DNA of 64,000 bases from Methanomassiliicoccales archaeon (GTDB lineage: Archaea; Thermoplasmatota; Thermoplasmata; Methanomassiliicoccales; UBA472): assembly GCA_036504055.1 (NCBI GenBank), contig DASXVU010000045.1, forward strand, positions 70,147 to 134,146, read 5' to 3'. Every line of letters begins with the position of its first letter. Within the stretch, counting starts at the first letter, position 1. The notes below the pieces were generated by a model that saw only the letters and a program-made list of their open reading frames with translations, was not told the origin of the DNA and searched no databases. Positions 395-9,856 of the stretch are shown in pieces. Both the position numbers and the translations under genes were made by a program.

Positions 395-1408
395 ATGGTT
401 GATTCGATGCACCAGGGCGTTGGAGCTGCCGATCAGGAGATCATCGACCGCCTTGTTTCTTCGGACGATCCCACTGTAAGACTGGCCGCCATGACAGAGC
501 TGGGAGGATTCCGCGGATCTGATCCGGAGGTGTTCCGAGCCCGCCAGGAAGCGATGCGATCGGGACCGATACCGAAGATCCTTGCCGCCCAAGACCCAGG
601 CGGATTCTGGGGCCGTGAAGAACAATTCTATGTCGGCGGTAAATACAAGGGCACGGTCTGGAACTTCATCCTGCTCGCACAACTGGAGGCCGATGGGAGT
701 GACGGTCGGATCAGGGCTGCGTCCGAATTCCTGTGGAGATGGTCGCAGCACGAGTGCGGCGGATTCGGGTATCAAGGTAATGCCGAAGGCAGCTCCGCCG
801 AAAGCATTCTACCGTGTCTGACCGGAAATCTCGTTTGGTCTATGCTGCGATTCGGCATGAAGGACGATAGCCGTGTCCGGACCGCCATAGAATGGATAGC
901 GAAATACCAGCGTTTCGACGACAACGAAGGACCGGCCCCGAAGGGATGGCCATATACCCGTAAGAATTGCTGGGGAAAGCACACCTGCCACATGGGCGTG
1001 GTCAAGGACCTTAAGGCGATCTCATTGGTCCCGAAGGACGAGAGATCGACGGCCTTGGCCAACGTCGCTTCCGCCGGGGCGGAGCATCTTCTTAAGCATC
1101 GTCTCTTCAAGAGGAGCCACGATCCGAGCCAAATCGCCAAGAAATGGTGGATCAATCTGGGATTCCCCCTCATGTGGGACACGGACGCGCTGGAAATGCT
1201 CGAAGTGCTGACCGACCTGGGATACCGGGATGAGCGGATGGAGGATGCGATCGAGCTTGTCCTGTCCAAGCGCCGCTCGGACGGCCTGTGGAGGAACGAG
1301 AGGAGCTACAACGGAAGGATCATTACCACGATTGAAAAACAGGGAGCGCCCAGCCAGTGGGTCACGCTCAGAGCGCTTGCGGTGCTCAAGAAGCTCGATC
1401 GGCTCTGA
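395..1408 (+). CDS. Prenyltransferase/squalene-cyclase-like (alpha/alpha barrel) repeat protein, function unknown
   Basis: QW-like repeats AQDPGGFWG, SQHECGGF, KRRSDGLW; 337 aa. Confidence 0.6.
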   Translation: MVDSMHQGVGAADQEIIDRLVSSDDPTVRLAAMTELGGFRGSDPEVFRARQEAMRSGPIPKILAAQDPGGFWGREEQFYVGGKYKGTVWNFILLAQLEADGSDGRIRAASEFLWRWSQHECGGFGYQGNAEGSSAESILPCLTGNLVWSMLRFGMKDDSRVRTAIEWIAKYQRFDDNEGPAPKGWPYTRKNCWGKHTCHMGVVKDLKAISLVPKDERSTALANVASAGAEHLLKHRLFKRSHDPSQIAKKWWINLGFPLMWDTDALEMLEVLTDLGYRDERMEDAIELVLSKRRSDGLWRNERSYNGRIITTIEKQGAPSQWVTLRALAVLKKLDRL

Positions 1409-1472: not shown

Positions 1473-2195
1473 ATGACTAGCTTCAGGATCGTCCTGGTAG
1501 AGCCCCAGACCGACGGGAACGTGGGAGCGGTGGCCAGGTCGATGGGTAATTTCGGTTTCGAGCGTCTGTTCATGGTAAACCCATGCGAACTCACCGAGGA
1601 AGCGTTCAAAAGGGCGAAGCATGGCAATCATATCCTCAGGGGTGCGACCACCGTCACCACCTTCGAAGAGGCTATCGCAGGCTGCTTCCTTGTCGTAGGT
1701 ACAAGCGGCATCATCACCTACGGGGACAAGCACTTCATCCGGATACCGATCACCCCTAGGGAACTGGCCTTGAGGATAGACGACCAGGAGGACGAGGTGG
1801 CGCTGGTCTTCGGAAGGGAGGACATCGGGCTGACACAAGAACAGCTGACCCGATGCGACATATTGGTCAACATACCGTCTAACGAGGAATACCCGATCCT
1901 CAACTTATCCCACGCTGCCACCATCGTCATGTACGAGATCTTCGCCAGTCATGGCAAGCCAAGCAATCCGAAGAAGGCGACCGAGTTCGAAAAGGACAAA
2001 TTGTACCAGTTCTTCGATTCTTTGCTCGACGCGGTCGACTACCCAGATCATCGCAGGGAAAAGACCAGCATCATGTTCAAGAGGATGATGGGCCGTGCCA
2101 TCCCGACCAGCTGGGAGTTCCACACCATAATGGGCGTCATCGGTGACGCGGCCAAGAAGATAAAGCGGCTCGAGAAGGCGGAAAAGGAAAAGTGA
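1473..2195 (+). CDS. trmJ: SPOUT tRNA methyltransferase, TrmJ/TrmH family
   Basis: RIVLVEPQTDGNVGAVARSM, LVFGREDIGL and LNLSHAATIVMYE motifs; start moved to ATG 1473. Confidence 0.88.
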   Translation: MTSFRIVLVEPQTDGNVGAVARSMGNFGFERLFMVNPCELTEEAFKRAKHGNHILRGATTVTTFEEAIAGCFLVVGTSGIITYGDKHFIRIPITPRELALRIDDQEDEVALVFGREDIGLTQEQLTRCDILVNIPSNEEYPILNLSHAATIVMYEIFASHGKPSNPKKATEFEKDKLYQFFDSLLDAVDYPDHRREKTSIMFKRMMGRAIPTSWEFHTIMGVIGDAAKKIKRLEKAEKEK

Positions 2196-2200
2196 CCGGT

Positions 2201-3220
2201 TCAGCGCCGGTATTTTCCGATCACTACGTTGATGTCATCGATCGGACCGGCAGCCGGAGGGAGTTCGGATATTCCAGTGACCAGCGCTATTAGCCTGATC
2301 GTTTCGTTGTCATCCTCCACCGTCCTTACGCCAAACTTCACGTTGGCATCCACATCAAGCTGCTCCGTCAGCCCTTCCACTATCCGATGGACCCGCCGGA
2401 GCGTGAGGTTGCTGCCTCCGGATATGTGGATCAGAGCACCGGTGCCTCCCTTGATGTCCACATCCAGCAATGGATTCTCCACCGCATCACGAACGACGCC
2501 TTCAGGGTCGGCATTCTCAGCGTAAAGGAGCGTGGATATCCCTCCATGTTTTATGATGGTCCGAAGATCGGCAAAATCGAGGTTGATCAATGACGGTTTT
2601 GTCAGCGCGTCCACCAGCCCTTTGATCAGCTCGGAGACCAGCGCATCCATTACTCCGAGGGCCTGGTTCATCGGCAGGTTGTCCACCATCTGCAGGAGGC
2701 GGTTGTTGTCCAGGACAAGTACGGTGTTCGAATATTCATTGAGCCGATTGAGCCCTATCATGGCGTTCCGACGCCTGGTGCCAGACTCGATCTTGAACGG
2801 CATCGTGGCTATCGATATGACTATGGAGCCGGCCTTCTGGGCATACTCCGCTATGACCGGGGACGCCCCGGTTCCGGTTCCGCCTCCCATGCCGGTTATT
2901 ATGAAAGTAAGGTCAACGTCGTTGAACATCTCGCAGAACAGGTTGGCACAGTTGCGCGCGCACTGTTCCCCCACCTCCGGGAGCCCTCCAGCGCCCAGCC
3001 CATGGGTGAAGTTTGCCCCGATCAGAACACGATTCTCGCAACGGGTGTCCTTCAGACTGCGCTGGTCTGTGTTTATGGCGATGGTCATGGCTGACTCTAG
3101 GCCGATGCGATTCAGCCTGGTAATGCTGTTACAGCCACCGCCTCCGCATCCGATGACGAGTATCTTCAGATCAGGCGCGTCGATGCCTGACTGGTCTTTC
3201 CATCCCGAGCCAATCCCCAT
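2201..3220 (-). CDS. ftsZ2: Cell division protein FtsZ, FtsZ2-type
   Basis: GCGGGGCN, GGGTGTG and T7 loop INLDFAD; FtsZ2-type LDNNRLL..NLP; lies directly downstream of an RHH gene. Confidence 0.88.
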   Translation of the reverse strand: MGIGSGWKDQSGIDAPDLKILVIGCGGGGCNSITRLNRIGLESAMTIAINTDQRSLKDTRCENRVLIGANFTHGLGAGGLPEVGEQCARNCANLFCEMFNDVDLTFIITGMGGGTGTGASPVIAEYAQKAGSIVISIATMPFKIESGTRRRNAMIGLNRLNEYSNTVLVLDNNRLLQMVDNLPMNQALGVMDALVSELIKGLVDALTKPSLINLDFADLRTIIKHGGISTLLYAENADPEGVVRDAVENPLLDVDIKGGTGALIHISGGSNLTLRRVHRIVEGLTEQLDVDANVKFGVRTVEDDNETIRLIALVTGISELPPAAGPIDDINVVIGKYRR

Positions 3221-3247
3221 CTTGATTACCTCACGGAAAGCGTGTCT

Positions 3248-3559
3248 TCACTTCAACTCGCTGACCGCCTTCTCCAGGCGCATTCTGACATATTCCCGTA
3301 CAGCATTCCTGATGGCGTCGTCTATGGAGACCGAGTCTCCGTCCTTGACGAGTGCTTGTAGTTCAACTATCTTGGTCTTCGGCAGCTCCACGGTTACCCT
3401 TCCGATGTAATCGGGCGTGGTATGCGTCTCGACGAATGTCTCGATCGCCGCCCTTATCGCGTCGGAGATGGTCGGGAATTTGCCGTTGTCCACCAGTGCC
3501 TGTAATGCTTGCAGCTTTTCGGCAGGAATCCTGACCGTGATCCGTTCGCTGTCGACCAT
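3248..3559 (-). CDS. Tandem ribbon-helix-helix (CdrS/CopG-like) transcription regulator
   Basis: Two RHH units: ERITVRIP...GKFPTISDAIRAAI and GRVTVELP...SIDDAIRNAVREY. Confidence 0.85.
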   Translation of the reverse strand: MVDSERITVRIPAEKLQALQALVDNGKFPTISDAIRAAIETFVETHTTPDYIGRVTVELPKTKIVELQALVKDGDSVSIDDAIRNAVREYVRMRLEKAVSELK

Positions 3560-3583
3560 GACACAACTCTTGTTCCGTTGATT

Positions 3584-3672
3584 TGTCTGACGCTTTTTGC
3601 CAAAACGTCTGACAAATTGGATGATTCACTTGAGAATATTTAAAAGTTAGCGAATCAAATAGCGTCTGACAA
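3584..3672 (-). promoter_or_regulatory. Putative promoter of RHH-ftsZ2 with repeated GTCTGAC operator-like sites
   Basis: GTCTGAC at 3585, 3607 and 3664 (CGTCTGACAA twice) flank a minus-strand TTTTAAATA box at about 3637-3645. Confidence 0.6.
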
Positions 3673-4055
3673 TAATGACGACGAACACGACCAGACTTCG
3701 TCGACATACGTAGCTGAATTTTGAACAGTGTCGTATTCGGGTCAACAGTTACAAATATTCCGAAGAGACCACTTCGCAGCACTTCGATGACGATCTTCTA
3801 TTGTCATGGATCTATTATGCCCATCAACCTGTCTTGAATGTCCGACCCTGGACCAGATCTATCATGAGAACGGATCTGATTCCCTAAATCTGACAAGCTC
3901 GAACCAACGGCATGAAGGCGACCTGGCCTCTGTCCAATCAATCGAACATGGAAACCAATCTTGAATCCTAACATCATGCGCAGATGCTAAAAAGCCACAG
4001 GACGTTGCGGATGCGTGGTCGAGACGTCGAAAATGCTGAGCATGGAGGTGCGTTC

Positions 4056-4925
4056 ATGATGAAGATCGACTTTCCTATAATGGACAATCACCTTCACCTG
4101 CAACCTAGAGGCCGTAACGTCGAAGCAATAAAAGAGTTCGAGAAGGCAGGCGGTACCCACGCCATCCTCAGCCACATGCCATATGATGAACTGCCGATAA
4201 CGAACGGCGCTGATTTCGAAAGGTCGTACCGAATAACCATGGACACGGCCGAGCGCTGCAACCGGGATTCGAAGGTAAAGGTCTTCGTGACCTTGGGTCC
4301 GTATCCGGTCCTGCTGATCGACCTGGCCAAAACCCATGGTATAGGGCCTGCCACCCAGATGATGAAGGAGGGAATGGAGTCGGCCGCCCGGCTGGTGCGA
4401 GAGGGCAAGGCCATAGCCATCGGTGAGGTTGGCAGGCCCCATTTTGAGGTGCCCTCCGATATCATGGAAGCCTCCAACGATATTCTCCATTACGGCATGT
4501 CGCTCGCCAAGGAGGCGTCATGCCCCATCGTCATCCACGCCGAGACCGCCACTCCAGAGACCATGGAGGACCTCGGCCGCATGGCTGACTCTGTCGGACT
4601 GGAAAGGGGAAAGGTTGTCAAACACTACTCGCCTCCTTTGGTGCTAGAGGAGGAGAATCGGGGACTCATGGCATCAGTCCTTGCCTCAAGAGGCAACGTT
4701 CAGGAGGCGTTCAGAAAGGGGAACCGTTTCTTCCTCGAGACCGATTTCATGGACGAACCGACCCGTCCGGGAGCGGTGCTCCCCATCGATACCGTGCCGA
4801 AGAGGATCAAAGGCATCGTTCAGTCCGGCATTGCCACATCGGATTTGATCGAAGCCGTTTGGAAGGTCAACAAGGACAATCCGAAGAAGGTCTACGGGAT
4901 AGATCTGGAAAGACCTGGAGACTAG
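4056..4925 (+). CDS. TatD-related metal-dependent hydrolase/deoxyribonuclease
   Basis: DNHLHL, AIGEVGRPHF, IVIHAE and FFLETDF motifs; SD GGAGGTG before ATG 4056. Confidence 0.85.
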   Translation: MMKIDFPIMDNHLHLQPRGRNVEAIKEFEKAGGTHAILSHMPYDELPITNGADFERSYRITMDTAERCNRDSKVKVFVTLGPYPVLLIDLAKTHGIGPATQMMKEGMESAARLVREGKAIAIGEVGRPHFEVPSDIMEASNDILHYGMSLAKEASCPIVIHAETATPETMEDLGRMADSVGLERGKVVKHYSPPLVLEEENRGLMASVLASRGNVQEAFRKGNRFFLETDFMDEPTRPGAVLPIDTVPKRIKGIVQSGIATSDLIEAVWKVNKDNPKKVYGIDLERPGD

Positions 4926-5206
4926 AGTATCTCGAACCTGTCATACTGATCACGATATTCGGTCCAAACCGCGTCCATGCCATCGACACGGGCATATGGG
5001 TGCTCCTCTCTTAGCATCCTTATGACCTCTTCGATGTTCTCCCTGTCTCCCTCAAAGACCGCCTTGACCGTACCGTCGGGAAGGTTCTTTACCCACCCGA
5101 ATACCTCCTTCTGCATGGCGAACCTTCGGGTGTAATCGCGGAAGTAGACACCCTGGACCTTACCCTTGAATATCACTTCTACCCGGGATTTCATTTTATT
5201 GGCCAC
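4922..5206 (-). CDS. acyP: Acylphosphatase
   Basis: GKVQGVYFR and GWVKNLPDGTV signature. Confidence 0.92.
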   Translation of the reverse strand: MANKMKSRVEVIFKGKVQGVYFRDYTRRFAMQKEVFGWVKNLPDGTVKAVFEGDRENIEEVIRMLREEHPYARVDGMDAVWTEYRDQYDRFEIL

Positions 5207-5385
5207 TTACACCGGACAATGCCGTTGTGATTATTATTTTTTCCACGGGCGGTTTTCCTTTACTGGCTATCAAAACAGATTGTTTTTATCGCCTGGCAAC
5301 AAAACCCCGATATGATTTTTATAATCCGTCAGCATATGGGGATTAATATTAGTGGTTACTTCAGGCTATCAGGAAGGGAAATGGG

Positions 5386-6519
5386 ATGTTGAAATCATTA
5401 GTCGAGGATGCACTGGCCAGGGACGACGTGCCAGTACCAAAGTTCGAGCAGGCGCCCGCGGCTCAGCCGGCCTTCAAGCAGGCAGACGGAGTGGATGACG
5501 AACTCATCGCAATTCTGCAAACGCTGAGAACCAACATAAAGATCTTCGGTGTCGGCGGAGGCGGTTCCAACACAATCAACCGGATCTACGATGAACAGAT
5601 CGTAGGTGCAGAGACTTATGCAGCGAACACTGACGCGCAGCACTTGCTGATGGTCCGCGCGCAGCACAAGATTCTTCTTGGAAGAAGAAGCACCCGCGGC
5701 CTGGGAGCGGGAGCGCTACCGCAAGCGGGAGAGCAGGCGGCCCAAGAGGCTGAACAGGAAATTCGCAAGGCCGTGCAGGACGCGAACATCGTATTCGTTA
5801 CGGCAGGCATGGGCGGAGGCACCGGTACCGGAGCCGCTGCGGTCGTGGCCGGGATCGCCAAGGACGCAGGCGCACTGACGATCGCGGTAACGACCACCCC
5901 CTTCAAAGGCGAGGGTAAGATGAGGATGGAGAACGCGGAGTGGGGTCTGGAGAGGCTCAGGAATGCCGCCGATACGGTCATCGTCATCCCGAACGACAAA
6001 CTGCTGGAGCTGTACCCCAGACTGTCTCTTAACCAGGCCTTCAAAGTTGCAGACGAGGTCCTTACCAGGGCCATCAAGGGGATCACCGAACTGATCACCA
6101 AGCCAGGATTGGTCAACCTCGACTTCAACGACCTGCGCACCATCATGAAGGGAGCGGGTGTGGCCATGATTGGCATGGGAGAGTCCACCGGTCACGTGGA
6201 GGACCGGGCATTGGAAGCCATCCAGATGGCGCTCAACTCACCGCTGTTAGAGGTCGACATAAGCACCGCGAATGGCGTGCTGGTCAACGTTGTCGGCGGA
6301 CCGGACATGACCATCGGCGACGCCCAGAAGGTAGCGGAAGAAGTGCAGAAGAAGGTCAGCCCCAATGCCAGGATCATCTGGGGTGCGGGCGTGGACCCTG
6401 CGCTGGAGCACAAGATCCGGGTGATGGTCGTCATCGCCGGAGTCCACTCCAAGCAGATCCTCGGAAAGTCCAGCGAGCAGGCAAAGCTCAAGGGCTCGGA
6501 CGTCGACTTCATTAAGTAA
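5386..6519 (+). CDS. ftsZ1: Cell division protein FtsZ, FtsZ1-type, copy a
   Basis: [28 protein letters not shown] and C-terminal DVDFIK. Confidence 0.93.
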   Translation: MLKSLVEDALARDDVPVPKFEQAPAAQPAFKQADGVDDELIAILQTLRTNIKIFGVGGGGSNTINRIYDEQIVGAETYAANTDAQHLLMVRAQHKILLGRRSTRGLGAGALPQAGEQAAQEAEQEIRKAVQDANIVFVTAGMGGGTGTGAAAVVAGIAKDAGALTIAVTTTPFKGEGKMRMENAEWGLERLRNAADTVIVIPNDKLLELYPRLSLNQAFKVADEVLTRAIKGITELITKPGLVNLDFNDLRTIMKGAGVAMIGMGESTGHVEDRALEAIQMALNSPLLEVDISTANGVLVNVVGGPDMTIGDAQKVAEEVQKKVSPNARIIWGAGVDPALEHKIRVMVVIAGVHSKQILGKSSEQAKLKGSDVDFIK

Positions 6520-6552
6520 GCCACACGTCCGACAGAAACCTTTTCCCTTCTT

Positions 6553-6759
6553 CTACAGTTTCTCTTTCTGATCGAACAGGAAGACATCCTCAATTCTCAC
6601 CTTGAAGAAGCGTGATATCTTGAAGGCGAGCTCAAGCGAAGGGTCGAACCTTTCGTTCTCTATGCAGATGATCGTCTGCCTGCTGACGCCGATCTTCTCC
6701 GCTAGCTCGGCTTGGGTCATGTTCGTGAGCGCCCGGTATACACGGAGATTGTTCTTCAT
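6553..6759 (-). CDS. Small XRE/Cro-CI family HTH regulator
   Basis: MKNNLRVYRALTNMTQAELAEKIGVSRQTIICIENERFDPSLELAFKIS. Confidence 0.9.
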   Translation of the reverse strand: MKNNLRVYRALTNMTQAELAEKIGVSRQTIICIENERFDPSLELAFKISRFFKVRIEDVFLFDQKEKL

Positions 6760-6831
6760 AGGTTCACTCGGGGACATTACTAGTGATGACGTTCGACGTT
6801 ATGTACATATTGATAACATTGCGTTTCTAAT

Positions 6832-6870
6832 TGTAATGTGTTAATATCAAATAGTAAATAACACTTTACA
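6832..6870. promoter_or_regulatory. Inverted-repeat operator candidate upstream of the XRE gene
   Basis: TGTAATGTGTTA (6832-6843) and TAACACTTTACA (6859-6870) form an 11/12 inverted repeat; internal GTAAA-N6-TTTAC at 6854-6869. Confidence 0.5.
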
Positions 6871-7076
6871 TGAATGCTCTAAAAACTAACAATATTTTTA
6901 TCGTGACTTCCAACATTAGCGCATCCAGACAGGAAAAAGAAGGGTAGCGGATATCACGAGAAAATCTAATTATATCTAAATCATCACCGAAATGTTTTAT
7001 ACACCCCAAGCCTCTAACGACATTAACCATACATTGCCAGCGATGCAGTCATGGCCAATATGTGGAGGAATTCACC

Positions 7077-8189
7077 TTGAAATCGTTCATCACCGACGCC
7101 CTTACCCGTGCAGGACCTGCAGGCGCAGCAGAGCCAGTTCAGACGCAGTATGGAAAACCTTACTCTCAGGATGATGAAGAGCTCACGAAGATCCTGATGG
7201 GGCTGAGGACGAACATCAAGATCATCGGCTGCGGGGGCGGAGGATCGAACACCATCGATCGGCTTTATGCATCCAACATCAAGGATGCCGACCTGTATGC
7301 GGCCAACACCGATGCCCAGCACCTGCTGGTGACGCGGGCGCACAGGAAGATCCTGCTGGGCAGGAGAAGCACCCGCGGACTCGGCGCCGGAGCCCTGCCC
7401 CAGGTGGGAGAAGAGGCGGCCAGGGAGGCCGAGGAGGAGCTAAGGAAGGCCCTCCAAGGAGCCGATATCGTATTCGTCACAGCTGGATTGGGCGGAGGCA
7501 CGGGTACCGGTTCAGCTCCTTACATCGCCCAGCTGGCAAAGGATATGGGAGCGCTCACGATCGCGATCGTCACCTCCCCGTTCAAAGCAGAAGGGACCAT
7601 CAGGGCGGAAAATGCCGAATGGGGGCTGGAAAGGATGAGGGCGGTCGCCGATACCGTTATCGTCATCCCGAACGACAAGCTCATCGAGCTTGTTCCCCGA
7701 TATTCACTAAACCAGGCGTTCAAGGTAGCCGACGAGGTCCTCATGAGGGCCATCAAAGGGATCACCGAACTGATCACCAAGCCAGGATTGGTCAACCTCG
7801 ACTTCAACGACCTGCGCACCATCATGAAGGGGGGCGGCGTGGCCATGATCGGCATGGGAGAAGGGGAGGCGGACGACCGGGTGGAGGACGCGGTTGAGGA
7901 GGCGATCAACTCACCGCTCATCAACGTCGACATTTCCGGGGCCAATGGAGTGCTGGTGAACGTCACCGGCGGAGAGGACATGTCCATCGGGGACGCCCAG
8001 AAGGTGGCCGAACTGATACAGGCCAAGGTCTCACCCAACGCAAGGATCATCTGGGGAGCATCGGTCGATCCGGCCCTGGAGAACCGTATCCGGGTAATGG
8101 TGGTCATCACAGGGGTCAAATCGAAGAACATCCTCGGTCCGAAGGAATCGAAGTCTGTAAAGGCGATGAACGTAGATTTCATCAAATGA
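7077..8189 (+). CDS. ftsZ1: Cell division protein FtsZ, FtsZ1-type, copy b (syntenic with secE-spt5)
   Basis: Same motifs as copy a; TTG start after SD GGAGG aligns with LKS.. of copy a; C-terminal NVDFIK. Confidence 0.93.
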
Positions 8190-8254
8190 TGCAGATACGT
8201 GAGGAAAGGATTATCTAGAGAAAACTAATAGACCCCTCTTCAAGAGTGCTTAAA

Positions 8255-8479
8255 ATGGACATCGTCGAGAAATCCTGGGAAGTCCAAGAGACTATCGAAG
8301 ATAGGGTCAAGAGGATCGGCAAGGGTAAGTACGGCCGAGTAATCAAAATGGCCCGGAAGCCGACTCCAGATGAATACGTCAAGACCGTCATGATCACTGG
8401 ACTAGGCATCATCCTCATCGGTGGGATGGGTTTCGCAATATACTTAATATGGAAGTACTTGCCGGGACTGTTCGGCTGA
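8255..8479 (+). CDS. secE: Protein translocase subunit SecE (Sec61 gamma)
   Basis: YGRVIKMARKPTPDEY plus one TM helix; canonical position between ftsZ1 and spt5. Confidence 0.92.
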   Translation: MDIVEKSWEVQETIEDRVKRIGKGKYGRVIKMARKPTPDEYVKTVMITGLGIILIGGMGFAIYLIWKYLPGLFG

Positions 8480-8507: not shown

Positions 8508-9374
8508 ATGACTGATGAAGATAACCAGACACTAATGCCCCAGACGCAGGGCGCCGGTTCTGTCTCACTTAGCGGAGATAACGCCCCCAGCGTCATGGCA
8601 GCAGGATCCGTCACGACCTGGCCGCTACAGGTGAAGAGCAACGATAGCGGCAAGAAGAAGGTCGTTCTACGCGCGAAGATTACCCTGGAAGAGGGAGCTC
8701 CGGAATGGGAGATCAAGATCACGGATGCCACGGGGGCATCGCTGTGGGAGAGCCAAGCTGCCGGTTCACCTCAGATCGAGTTCAATCTGGACGGCCCGCG
8801 CCCGAAAGATCTTAAGCTCATCGTAGAGGCGCCCAAAGGGGCCCGTTACAATGACAAGGTGACCATCGAGCTGGAGGTCTGCCTTGGAGACCAGGTCTGC
8901 GCGGCAAAAGAGTTCAGCGCGACCGCCAGACAATCTATCCTGGTCCTAAAGACCTCGATCGGCCATGAGAGGAACGTCGCAGACGGCGTTTCCAGCAAGG
9001 CCAAGACCGGCAACACCGGTATTTTCGCCATACTTGCCCCGGGCAAGTTGGATGGTTACGTCTTCATGGAAGCTATGAACACTGACCTAGTCCGGGAGAC
9101 CGTCCGCGGCGTCCGCAAGGCCAAGGGCCTGGTGGAAGGCGAGACGAGCTTCAGCGAGATAGAGCACTTCCTGACCCCGAAGCCGCTGGTTTCCGGGATC
9201 ATGGAGGGTGACGTGGTCGAACTGGTCGCCGGTCCGTTCAAGGGCGAGAAGGCCAGGGTCCAGAAGATCGATGAGAGCAAGGAAGAGATCACCGTCGAGC
9301 TGTTCGAGGCGACCGTTCCGATACCGGTCACCGTTAGAGGCGACCACGTGAGAGTCCTCGAGAAGGAGAAGTGA
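8508..9374 (+). CDS. spt5: Transcription elongation factor Spt5 (NusG) with ~140-aa N-terminal extension
   Basis: NGN domain (KTSIGHE..., GYVFME) and KOW motif (GDVVELVAGPFKGEKARV). Confidence 0.92.
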   Translation: MTDEDNQTLMPQTQGAGSVSLSGDNAPSVMAAGSVTTWPLQVKSNDSGKKKVVLRAKITLEEGAPEWEIKITDATGASLWESQAAGSPQIEFNLDGPRPKDLKLIVEAPKGARYNDKVTIELEVCLGDQVCAAKEFSATARQSILVLKTSIGHERNVADGVSSKAKTGNTGIFAILAPGKLDGYVFMEAMNTDLVRETVRGVRKAKGLVEGETSFSEIEHFLTPKPLVSGIMEGDVVELVAGPFKGEKARVQKIDESKEEITVELFEATVPIPVTVRGDHVRVLEKEK

Positions 9375-9379
9375 GTATA

Positions 9380-9856
9380 ATGCCAGAGACTATTGAAGTG
9401 CTAGTAGACGGTGGCAAGGCCACCCCCGGACAGCCGCTCGGCCCAGCGCTGGGCCCGACCGGGATCAACGTCGTCCAGGTAGTGCAGAAGATCAACGAGA
9501 AGACCCAGGCCTTCGCGGGGATGAAGGTCCCGGTCAAGATCACGATCAACGCGAACAAGACCTTCGAGATCAAGGTCGGCACCCCGCCGACATCCGCGCT
9601 CCTGTTCAAGGAGCTGGGTGTGGAGAAGGGATCGGGCGCCCCGAAGGCGACCAAGGCCGGAAACATCTCCATGGAGCAGGCCGTAAAGGTCTCCGAGATG
9701 AAGAAGGACTCTCTCATGGGCAAGGACCAGAAGCACCGTGCCAAGGAGGTCATCGGAACCTGCGTCTCGTGCGGTATCACCGTCGAGGGCAAGGAGCCGA
9801 GGGACATCCTGAGGGAGATCGACGAGGGCAAGTGGGACGCAAAATTCGGGGCCTGA
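9380..9856 (+). CDS. rpl11: 50S ribosomal protein L11 (uL11)
   Basis: GGKATPGQPLGPALGP, PPTSALL. Confidence 0.96.
   Translation: MPETIEVLVDGGKATPGQPLGPALGPTGINVVQVVQKINEKTQAFAGMKVPVKITINANKTFEIKVGTPPTSALLFKELGVEKGSGAPKATKAGNISMEQAVKVSEMKKDSLMGKDQKHRAKEVIGTCVSCGITVEGKEPRDILREIDEGKWDAKFGA

Follow-up and report, generated by a model that had tools for sequence, protein, structure and literature searches.

The window analysed was a 64,000-nucleotide (nt) stretch of contig DASXVU010000045.1 from a Methanomassiliicoccales archaeon, and coordinates without a contig label are window positions. Three ftsZ genes in it are considered here: one ftsZ2 (2201-3220, minus strand; 339 amino acids (aa), full length) and a tandem pair of ftsZ1 genes, consisting of the upstream copy ftsZ1a (5386-6519, plus strand; 377 aa; product Z1a) and the copy adjoining secE, ftsZ1b (7062-8189, plus strand; 375 aa, GTG start; product Z1b). 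All three are intact open reading frames (ORFs) within 6 kb, as an original prediction made from the letters of the sequence had stated. The two FtsZ1-type proteins are 70% identical over 376 aa, which agrees with the value estimated there by eye, and their genes are about 74% identical in DNA; FtsZ2 shares 37% protein identity with Z1b.

The proteins were scored with TIGR00065, the NCBI FtsZ equivalog model (curated cut-off 295 bits), which all three exceed (FtsZ2 322, Z1a 419, and Z1b 435 bits). In each of them, and also in X21 (one of the dispersed paralogs described below), a Tubulin domain (PF00091) is followed by FtsZ_C (PF12327). The T1 (GGGGxN), T4 (GGGTGTG), and T7 (NxDxxD; here NLDF(N/A)D) loops are intact in all three proteins, and the C-terminal tails read SDVDFIK in Z1a and MNVDFIK in Z1b; the predicted GGGTGTG and T7 loops and (D/N)VDFIK tails were thus found in the alignment of both copies. 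The closest solved-structure match of Z1b is FtsZ homolog 1 of M. jannaschii (3.4e-112). As no FtsZ2-labelled chain occurs among the solved-structure matches, FtsZ2 was named by phylogeny and by its cdrS synteny. Tree, domains, equivalog model, and synteny together uphold the reading of the locus as one FtsZ2 plus a duplicated FtsZ1. By these sequence criteria the three products are genuine FtsZ proteins, for which GTP-dependent polymerisation and ring formation are predicted.

An explanation of the finding as an artefact or a misidentification, by which the duplication would stem from the assembly or one copy would be a CetZ or another tubulin, can practically be dismissed. An assembly duplication is contradicted by the DNA identity of only about 74% and by the presence of the tandem in the single-contig relatives G006, G014, G029, and G069. 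Of the sequencing runs searched for the locus, one DNA run and no RNA run proved to contain it. Read depth in this DNA run is about 10-11x on the unique parts of ftsZ1a and of ftsZ1b and about 23x on a 74-nt run common to both (6079-6152 in ftsZ1a, exactly equal to 7758-7831 in ftsZ1b). A separate 74-nt contig of that run maps exactly to 7758-7831 at double depth, which is accounted for by a stretch exactly common to two real copies. The run is probably the source sample, and the depth pattern therefore serves as a consistency check and not as independent proof. A CetZ or other tubulin identity was rejected on the presence of FtsZ_C, the TIGR00065 scores, the solved-structure matches (the top 49 all FtsZ, zero CetZ), and the placement of both copies in FtsZ1 in trees built without CetZ sequences.

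For the phylogenetic analysis, family genes were collected from 28 Thermoplasmata genomes, further genomes of the phylum, and DPANN outgroups, and a careful maximum-likelihood tree was calculated from 132 sequences. FtsZ1 and FtsZ2 are split (support 100/99*), with the 339-aa gene on the FtsZ2 side and Z1a, Z1b, and the dispersed X paralogs on the FtsZ1 side, which also holds the DPANN and other single-copy Thermoplasmatota FtsZ1 sequences. The Thermoplasmatota FtsZ1 form a clade (99/94*) with DPANN FtsZ1 outside it. Z1a (15 rows, 98/83*) and Z1b (18 rows, 99/87*) each form a clade in which both the order and other families of the class are represented, and both clades fall inside one of 102 rows (99/95*). 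Neither the quick nor the careful tree resolves the branching order of Z1a, Z1b, and X. In the approximately unbiased (AU) test a sister relationship of Z1a and Z1b is not rejected (p 0.61), the constrained tree gaining 9.3 log-likelihood units over the result of the free search; this result is compatible with one ancient tandem duplication.

The tandem pair was found in all surveyed members of families f1-f6 (41 genomes of Methanomassiliicoccales). In most families of the class sample (121 genomes) 4-9 FtsZ matches were obtained, and many families contain tandem pairs; in the rest of the phylum the canonical two genes prevail, families f31 and f42 also having tandems. The duplication had been predicted to be lineage-specific; this description has to be given up, as Z1a and Z1b are old clades that extend across the order (f1-f6) and many families of the class. 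The ratio of nonsynonymous to synonymous substitution rates (dN/dS) was determined against same-genus orthologs for all nine FtsZ-family genes of the genome (the others are described below) and lies at 0.03-0.13 (Z1a 0.030, Z1b 0.088, FtsZ2 0.037). On these ratios all nine are under purifying selection, and all copies look functional.

At the level of the order, 23 positions have non-overlapping residue sets in Z1a and Z1b. They are concentrated on the N-terminal extension, the residues directly following T4, the T5 loop PFK(G/A)EG(K/T)(M/I), a few sites of the C-terminal domain, and the C-terminal linker; in agreement with the original prediction, the alignments show the greatest divergence between the copies in the N-terminal extension and the C-terminal linker. 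At the level of the class a single diagnostic position is left, which is G in Z1a and A in Z1b within the PFK(G/A)EG loop.

The end of H7, the T7 loop, and the start of H8 are, by contrast with these divergent positions, identical in protein between Z1a and Z1b and, in the present genome, in DNA as well. The segment concerned covers about 180 nt (6025-6201 in ftsZ1a, plus strand, codons 214-272, comprising the H7 end, the T7 loop, and H8/S7; 7704-7874 in ftsZ1b, plus strand) and contains the exact 74-nt run. Third-codon-position identity between the copies rises to as much as 0.90 within it, against a background of about 0.45. In other genomes, too, the tract is more similar between the two copies of one genome than to its orthologs in other genera, with within-genome identities of 97% in G026 (all third positions identical), 88% in G017, and 85% in G014. 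In a tree of the tract the a and b labels are scrambled (8 changes, against a random mean of 7.7) and same-genome pairs are joined at 92-96, whereas the remainder of the gene gives clean a and b clades (1 change, 99*, with 0/500 shuffles as low). Support for single groupings within the tract is weak, given how short and conserved it is, but both the synonymous signal and the difference from the remaining gene are clear. The H7/T7 segment is repeatedly homogenised by gene conversion, while the remainder of the two genes evolves independently.

These data bear on one explanation of the pair, namely that the ftsZ1 copies are functionally redundant and are retained for dosage only. Such redundancy would fit the very small number of class-wide diagnostic differences, the partial homogenisation by gene conversion, and the fact that a single copy is enough in some lineages. 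It is nevertheless very unlikely, since the copies show reciprocal monophyly once the tract is set aside (99*, no shuffle scoring as low), are retained throughout the class with dN/dS of 0.03-0.09, and differ in disjoint residue sets at 23 order-level positions; fully redundant duplicates are, moreover, not expected to persist in the long term.

The genes around the three ftsZ genes were annotated with Pfam and compared between genomes. On the outer flank, a gene for a SpoU-family RNA methyltransferase (1473-2195, plus strand; SpoU_methylase, 1.5e-28) adjoins ftsZ2. Farther out, the 337-aa ORF at 395-1408 (plus strand) gives no Pfam match, and its ortholog opens locus L039 of a close relative. 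On the other side of ftsZ2, directly upstream of it, lies a cdrS-like ribbon-helix-helix (RHH) gene (3248-3559, minus strand; 103 aa; RHH_1, 3.5e-11, residues 6-44), as had been predicted. It stops 27 nt ahead of the ftsZ2 start on the same strand, and from this arrangement the two genes are probably one co-transcribed operon. Two RHH repeats apparently follow each other within the protein (ERITVRIPAEKL... and GRVTVELPKTKI...); the first alone is recognised by Pfam, and the second was identified by eye. The adjacency of RHH gene and ftsZ2 is kept across Thermoplasmatota and at most loci of the FtsZ2 clade, and is missing in DPANN; an RHH (cdrS) gene directly ahead of ftsZ2, likewise missing in DPANN, is a published hallmark of ftsZ2 (PMC7439475).

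Between the operon and the tandem lie two conserved spacer genes, which encode a TatD-family hydrolase (3984-4925, plus strand; TatD_DNase, 1.4e-24) and, directly upstream of ftsZ1a, an acylphosphatase (4922-5206, minus strand; Acylphosphatase, 2.8e-24). Downstream, ftsZ1b is followed by a secE-like gene (8246-8479, plus strand; 77 aa), spt5/nusG (8508-9374, plus strand; 288 aa, with Spt5-NGN at residues 146-222 and KOW at 233-264), and rpl11 (9371-9856, plus strand), which opens a ribosomal-protein cluster of L11, L1, L10, and L12. The secE-like gene has no Pfam match of its own and was matched by phmmer; its position after ftsZ1 is kept in all relatives and in many outgroups. Spt5/NusG carries an N-terminal extension of about 140 aa, for which only a sub-threshold Ig-like match was obtained (FlgD_ig, E 0.0076). 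The corresponding ORFs of relatives in the class are similarly long (about 300-320 aa), and Spt5 has about 176 aa in genomes of the phylum outside the class.

The order SpoU-FtsZ2-RHH...TatD-AcyP-Z1a-(HTH)-Z1b-SecE-Spt5-L11-L1, in which HTH stands for a helix-turn-helix gene described below, is kept in G006, G014, G015, G017, G026, G027, and G028, as well as in G069, which belongs to another family; the SpoU gene lies beside FtsZ2 in all eight of these genomes and also in G025 and G049. Z1b adjoins SecE in every locus examined, with Z1a one position upstream, and FtsZ1 stands beside SecE-Spt5-L11 in many outgroups, DPANN included; the X paralogs are without such neighbours. Copy b accordingly occupies the ancestral ftsZ1-secE-spt5-rpl11 position, as proposed. 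The proposal that the genes had been gathered into a compact division cluster holds in part: the cluster is compact, and its arrangement is conserved synteny across the order instead of a local gathering.

Upstream sequences were read directly for TATA-like boxes. Such a box was found ahead of each ftsZ1 gene (that of ftsZ1a about 60 nt upstream), and an opposite-strand gene for an XRE-type HTH regulator (6553-6777, minus strand; 74 aa; HTH_3, 4.9e-14) lies between the copies, divergent from ftsZ1b; for both reasons Z1a and Z1b are taken to be separately transcribed. The same features could be understood in terms of condition-specific isoforms, an alternative raised in the original prediction, which would build alternative Z-rings in different growth states with the HTH gene controlling ftsZ1b. 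The separate TATA-like elements and the A+T-rich 284-bp intergenic region shared by the HTH gene and ftsZ1b would suit such control, and an FtsZ gene has been reported as up-regulated in M. luminyensis co-culture. A search of this spacer for operator-like repeats gave weak short inverted repeats only, none of them convincing. The HTH gene occupies the position between the ftsZ1 copies only in G000, G006, G014, G015, and G027; it is absent there in G017, G026, G028, and G069, which still keep both copies. In addition, a rough codon-adaptation index, calculated against the adjacent ribosomal-protein genes, is identical for the two (Z1a 0.623, Z1b 0.623), so that condition-specific isoforms are judged rather unlikely. 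The equal index also speaks weakly against one copy being a poorly expressed spare.

A PF00091 profile search of the genome gave ten matches, which correspond to nine genes (eight canonical and one degenerate): Z1a, Z1b, Z2, X20, X21, X22, X36, a fifth X gene that is split, and D1. The three-component system of the original prediction is not supported, the genome holding nine FtsZ-family genes and not three. No CetZ-like gene was found in the genome, every strong PF00091 match being of the FtsZ type. X20, X21, X22, and X36 are dispersed, about 83% identical to one another, and 55-59% identical to Z1b; the X clade as a whole (44 rows, 100/98*) is class-wide and lies on the FtsZ1 side. Three of these four copies pair one-to-one with genes of G006 in the tree, and at least three are therefore older than the split from the G006 species. 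The X paralogs have long Q/P-rich linkers, and the catalytic loops are intact in all five. An origin as copies of a mobile element or of a larger segment was considered and rejected, as only the coding sequences are alike (about 80% in nt) and flanks and neighbouring genes are unrelated.

The X-beta paralogs (C36:40701, C21:21607, C20:20158, and C22:21721) have a common TATA box, ATATTTAWAT, about 45 nt upstream, and an identical GGGATGCAC leader directly ahead of the ATG. Since the flanks are otherwise unrelated, the duplications carried about 60 nt of promoter and leader with them.

The fifth X gene is broken at contig ends (C37:1-798(-) and C18:3-737(+)) at the conserved VFVTAGMG motif, and both halves match a single gene of G006. 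It belongs to the X-alpha subclade, in which the conserved C-terminal tail is lost in all members examined, and it would be an "anchor-less" FtsZ1 paralog. D1 (C1:25872-26789(+)) is degenerate in T3, T4, and T7, with GLGGETGS in place of GGGTGTG and the T7 motif gone; it has a dN/dS of 0.13, belongs to a long-branched clade found across the class, and lies about 0.8 kb from a divergent HerA-domain ATPase gene, with one small membrane-protein ORF in between. In relatives, a "short" FtsZ type occurs that consists of the GTPase domain only, without T7 and the C-terminal domain. In the tree it falls within FtsZ2, on long branches, and a double-RHH gene of its own precedes it. The short gene, its RHH partner, and the flanking gene are all missing from the present assembly, so the region is probably unassembled here.

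The X genes give some ground for a further explanation, in which one tandem copy, the X paralogs, or both would act outside division, in a cytoskeleton for cell shape or membrane remodelling that fills the niche of haloarchaeal CetZ. The genome has no CetZ-like gene and five X paralogs with long Q/P-rich linkers, one subclade of which is tail-less, and in codon adaptation X21 ranks highest among the family members. Z1a and Z1b, on the other hand, have lost none of the FtsZ1 features and have not left the ancestral division locus, and the sequence has nothing that tells a shape role from a division role; this explanation is considered quite unlikely.

A conserved C-terminal tail, (D/E)-(V/I/L)-D-(F/L/V)-(I/V)-(R/K), is common to Z1a, Z1b, and the majority of the X genes. 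A "GID" motif is near-invariant in the tails of archaeal FtsZ and binds SepF (PMC8178401). It is matched well by the G/DIDFVR ends of the X paralogs, and Z1a and Z1b carry the variant (D/N)VDFIK; X-alpha is without the motif. The genome contains one SepF gene. By this resemblance to the SepF-binding motif, the tails of Z1a, Z1b, and the tailed X paralogs are candidate contacts of SepF.

Z1a and Z1b are thus ancient, intact FtsZ1 isoforms under strong purifying selection. Taken together, the data make it probable that they are separately transcribed, share filaments or a ring, and have become sub-functionalised. In the mechanism proposed, both isoforms would enter the same filaments or the same ring, and the T7 face, which is identical here and has been repeatedly homogenised elsewhere, would keep them compatible in polymerisation. 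The differences in the N-terminal extension, in the residues after T4, in the T5 loop, and in the linker could tune kinetics or partner binding, and FtsZ2, under its RHH regulator, would supply constriction as in Haloferax. Co-polymerisation of Z1a with Z1b specifically is a serious possibility that falls a little short of probable.

Several points weigh against this interpretation. With one diagnostic position left at class level, the functional divergence may be slight or dependent on the lineage. In place of selection for compatibility, the gene conversion may reflect nothing more than a highly conserved stretch that is prone to recombination. Only Z1b is retained in the class members G041, G044, G045, and G047, and in G029 (family f6, locus L129) both tandem copies group with Z1a (in the quick tree they are sisters, which the careful one does not resolve); the pair is therefore dispensable or replaceable in some lineages. 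The case of G029, in which FtsZ2 was not found in the survey of FtsZ-family genes, suggests that Z1b was replaced or converted as a whole gene in that lineage. The partner of the tails in the present organism is uncertain, since SepF of Haloferax anchors FtsZ2 and not FtsZ1. Finally, co-assembly is something we infer from sequence comparison.

A bolder version of sub-functionalised isoforms, speculative and unlikely, would be an FtsZ1 cytoskeleton of several isotypes in the wall-less Thermoplasmata. In it, Z1a would co-polymerise with Z1b obligatorily or by preference, recurrent gene conversion would match their T7/H7 faces, and the X paralogs, tailed and tail-less, would make up additional filament systems in place of CetZ-like functions. 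If this were true, the pairing of Z1a with Z1b would be a prokaryotic parallel to tubulin heterodimers or to the FtsZ1/FtsZ2 of plastids.

Family f7 of the same order (G086, G094, G101, and G113; loci L154-L161), probably Methanomethylophilaceae, consists of gut methanogens with small genomes of 1.3-1.9 Mb without FtsZ1a, FtsZ1b, X paralogs, or full-length FtsZ2. Retained are a GTPase-only FtsZ2 derivative of about 245 aa, with a double-RHH gene upstream, and a very divergent FtsZ-like gene. Methanomethylophilaceae were scored as lacking FtsZ, SepF, and ESCRT-III (Pende et al. 2021); that f7 was scored as "FtsZ-less" is explained by the retention of divergent remnants only.

In reviews and primary papers archaea are described with one or two FtsZ. 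For Methanomassiliicoccaceae, 3-6 FtsZ are given in Supplementary Data 1 of Pende et al. 2021, some of them adjacent: Ca. Methanomassiliicoccus intestinalis has three, including the adjacent accessions AGN27030.1 and AGN27031.1, and two Methanomassiliicoccaceae metagenome-assembled genomes have five and six, the latter with _6, _7, and _14 on one contig. The raw multi-copy pattern is therefore already on record, and its components are ordinary members of FtsZ1, FtsZ2, and the cdrS-like RHH proteins. Such an arrangement is the rule for the lineage, and beyond this supplementary listing no text was found in which it is described or analysed. In the searchable literature, from which subscription-only papers fall outside, no description of the Z1a and Z1b clades, the cluster, the X family, or the conversion tract was found. 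New here are the reciprocal monophyly of the tandem copies and the recurrent conversion of the H7/T7 segment.

Archaeal division is at present modelled either with one FtsZ1 and one FtsZ2, after Haloferax, or with a single FtsZ1, after Methanobrevibacter. A class that includes human-gut and soil methanogens, in contrast, keeps two ancient tandem FtsZ1 isoforms, further FtsZ1-derived paralogs, and, in relatives of the present organism, a truncated FtsZ2 derivative. It offers a natural system in which to study the sharing of one ring, one membrane, and one SepF among multiple FtsZ isoforms. The restriction of gene conversion to the region over T7 points to the part that has to match between isoforms, which is a testable hypothesis.

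Compared with the dual FtsZ1/FtsZ2 division system of Euryarchaeota, for which Haloferax volcanii is the model (PMC7617429, PMC8178401), the present locus has in common one FtsZ2, proteins of the FtsZ1 type, an ftsZ1 gene beside secE-spt5-rpl11, and a single SepF. It differs in having two ancient tandem FtsZ1 isoforms, five FtsZ1-derived paralogs, and no CetZ in the genome, and in the linkage of FtsZ2 to the FtsZ1 copies within about 2-5 kb. The cdrS-ftsZ2 operon (Darnell et al. 2020, PMC7439475) is matched by the small RHH gene immediately upstream on the same strand with its 27-nt gap. Unlike in that operon, the RHH protein has 103 aa with apparently two repeats, no cdrL is present, and relatives contain a second module of a double RHH and a truncated FtsZ2 derivative.

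The plastid FtsZ1 and FtsZ2 of plants and moss co-polymerise (PMC11760385, PMC13650779), and Agrobacterium tumefaciens has three FtsZ homologs that form co-polymers, only one copy being essential (bioRxiv 10.1101/412759), according to the abstracts of these papers. As far as these abstracts go, the present set resembles both in having several GTPase-competent paralogs (here judged by motif) per compartment or cell, and the mechanism proposed is analogous. The duplications are independent, and co-polymerisation is experimental there and proposed from sequence here. The abstracts make no mention of a tandem arrangement or of localised gene conversion. The truncated FtsZ of Hyphomicrobiales (PMC13732431) is comparable to the short Thermoplasmata type, which is also GTPase-only and could tune division; the archaeal type differs in being FtsZ2-derived and in having its own RHH gene, and it lies outside the window. 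With haloarchaeal CetZ, finally, the family shares the expansion of the tubulin superfamily in archaea that have an S-layer or no wall, and the X paralogs could conceivably be cytoskeletal; unlike CetZ, the genes described here have retained FtsZ_C, score above the cut-off of the FtsZ equivalog model, and are placed within FtsZ1.

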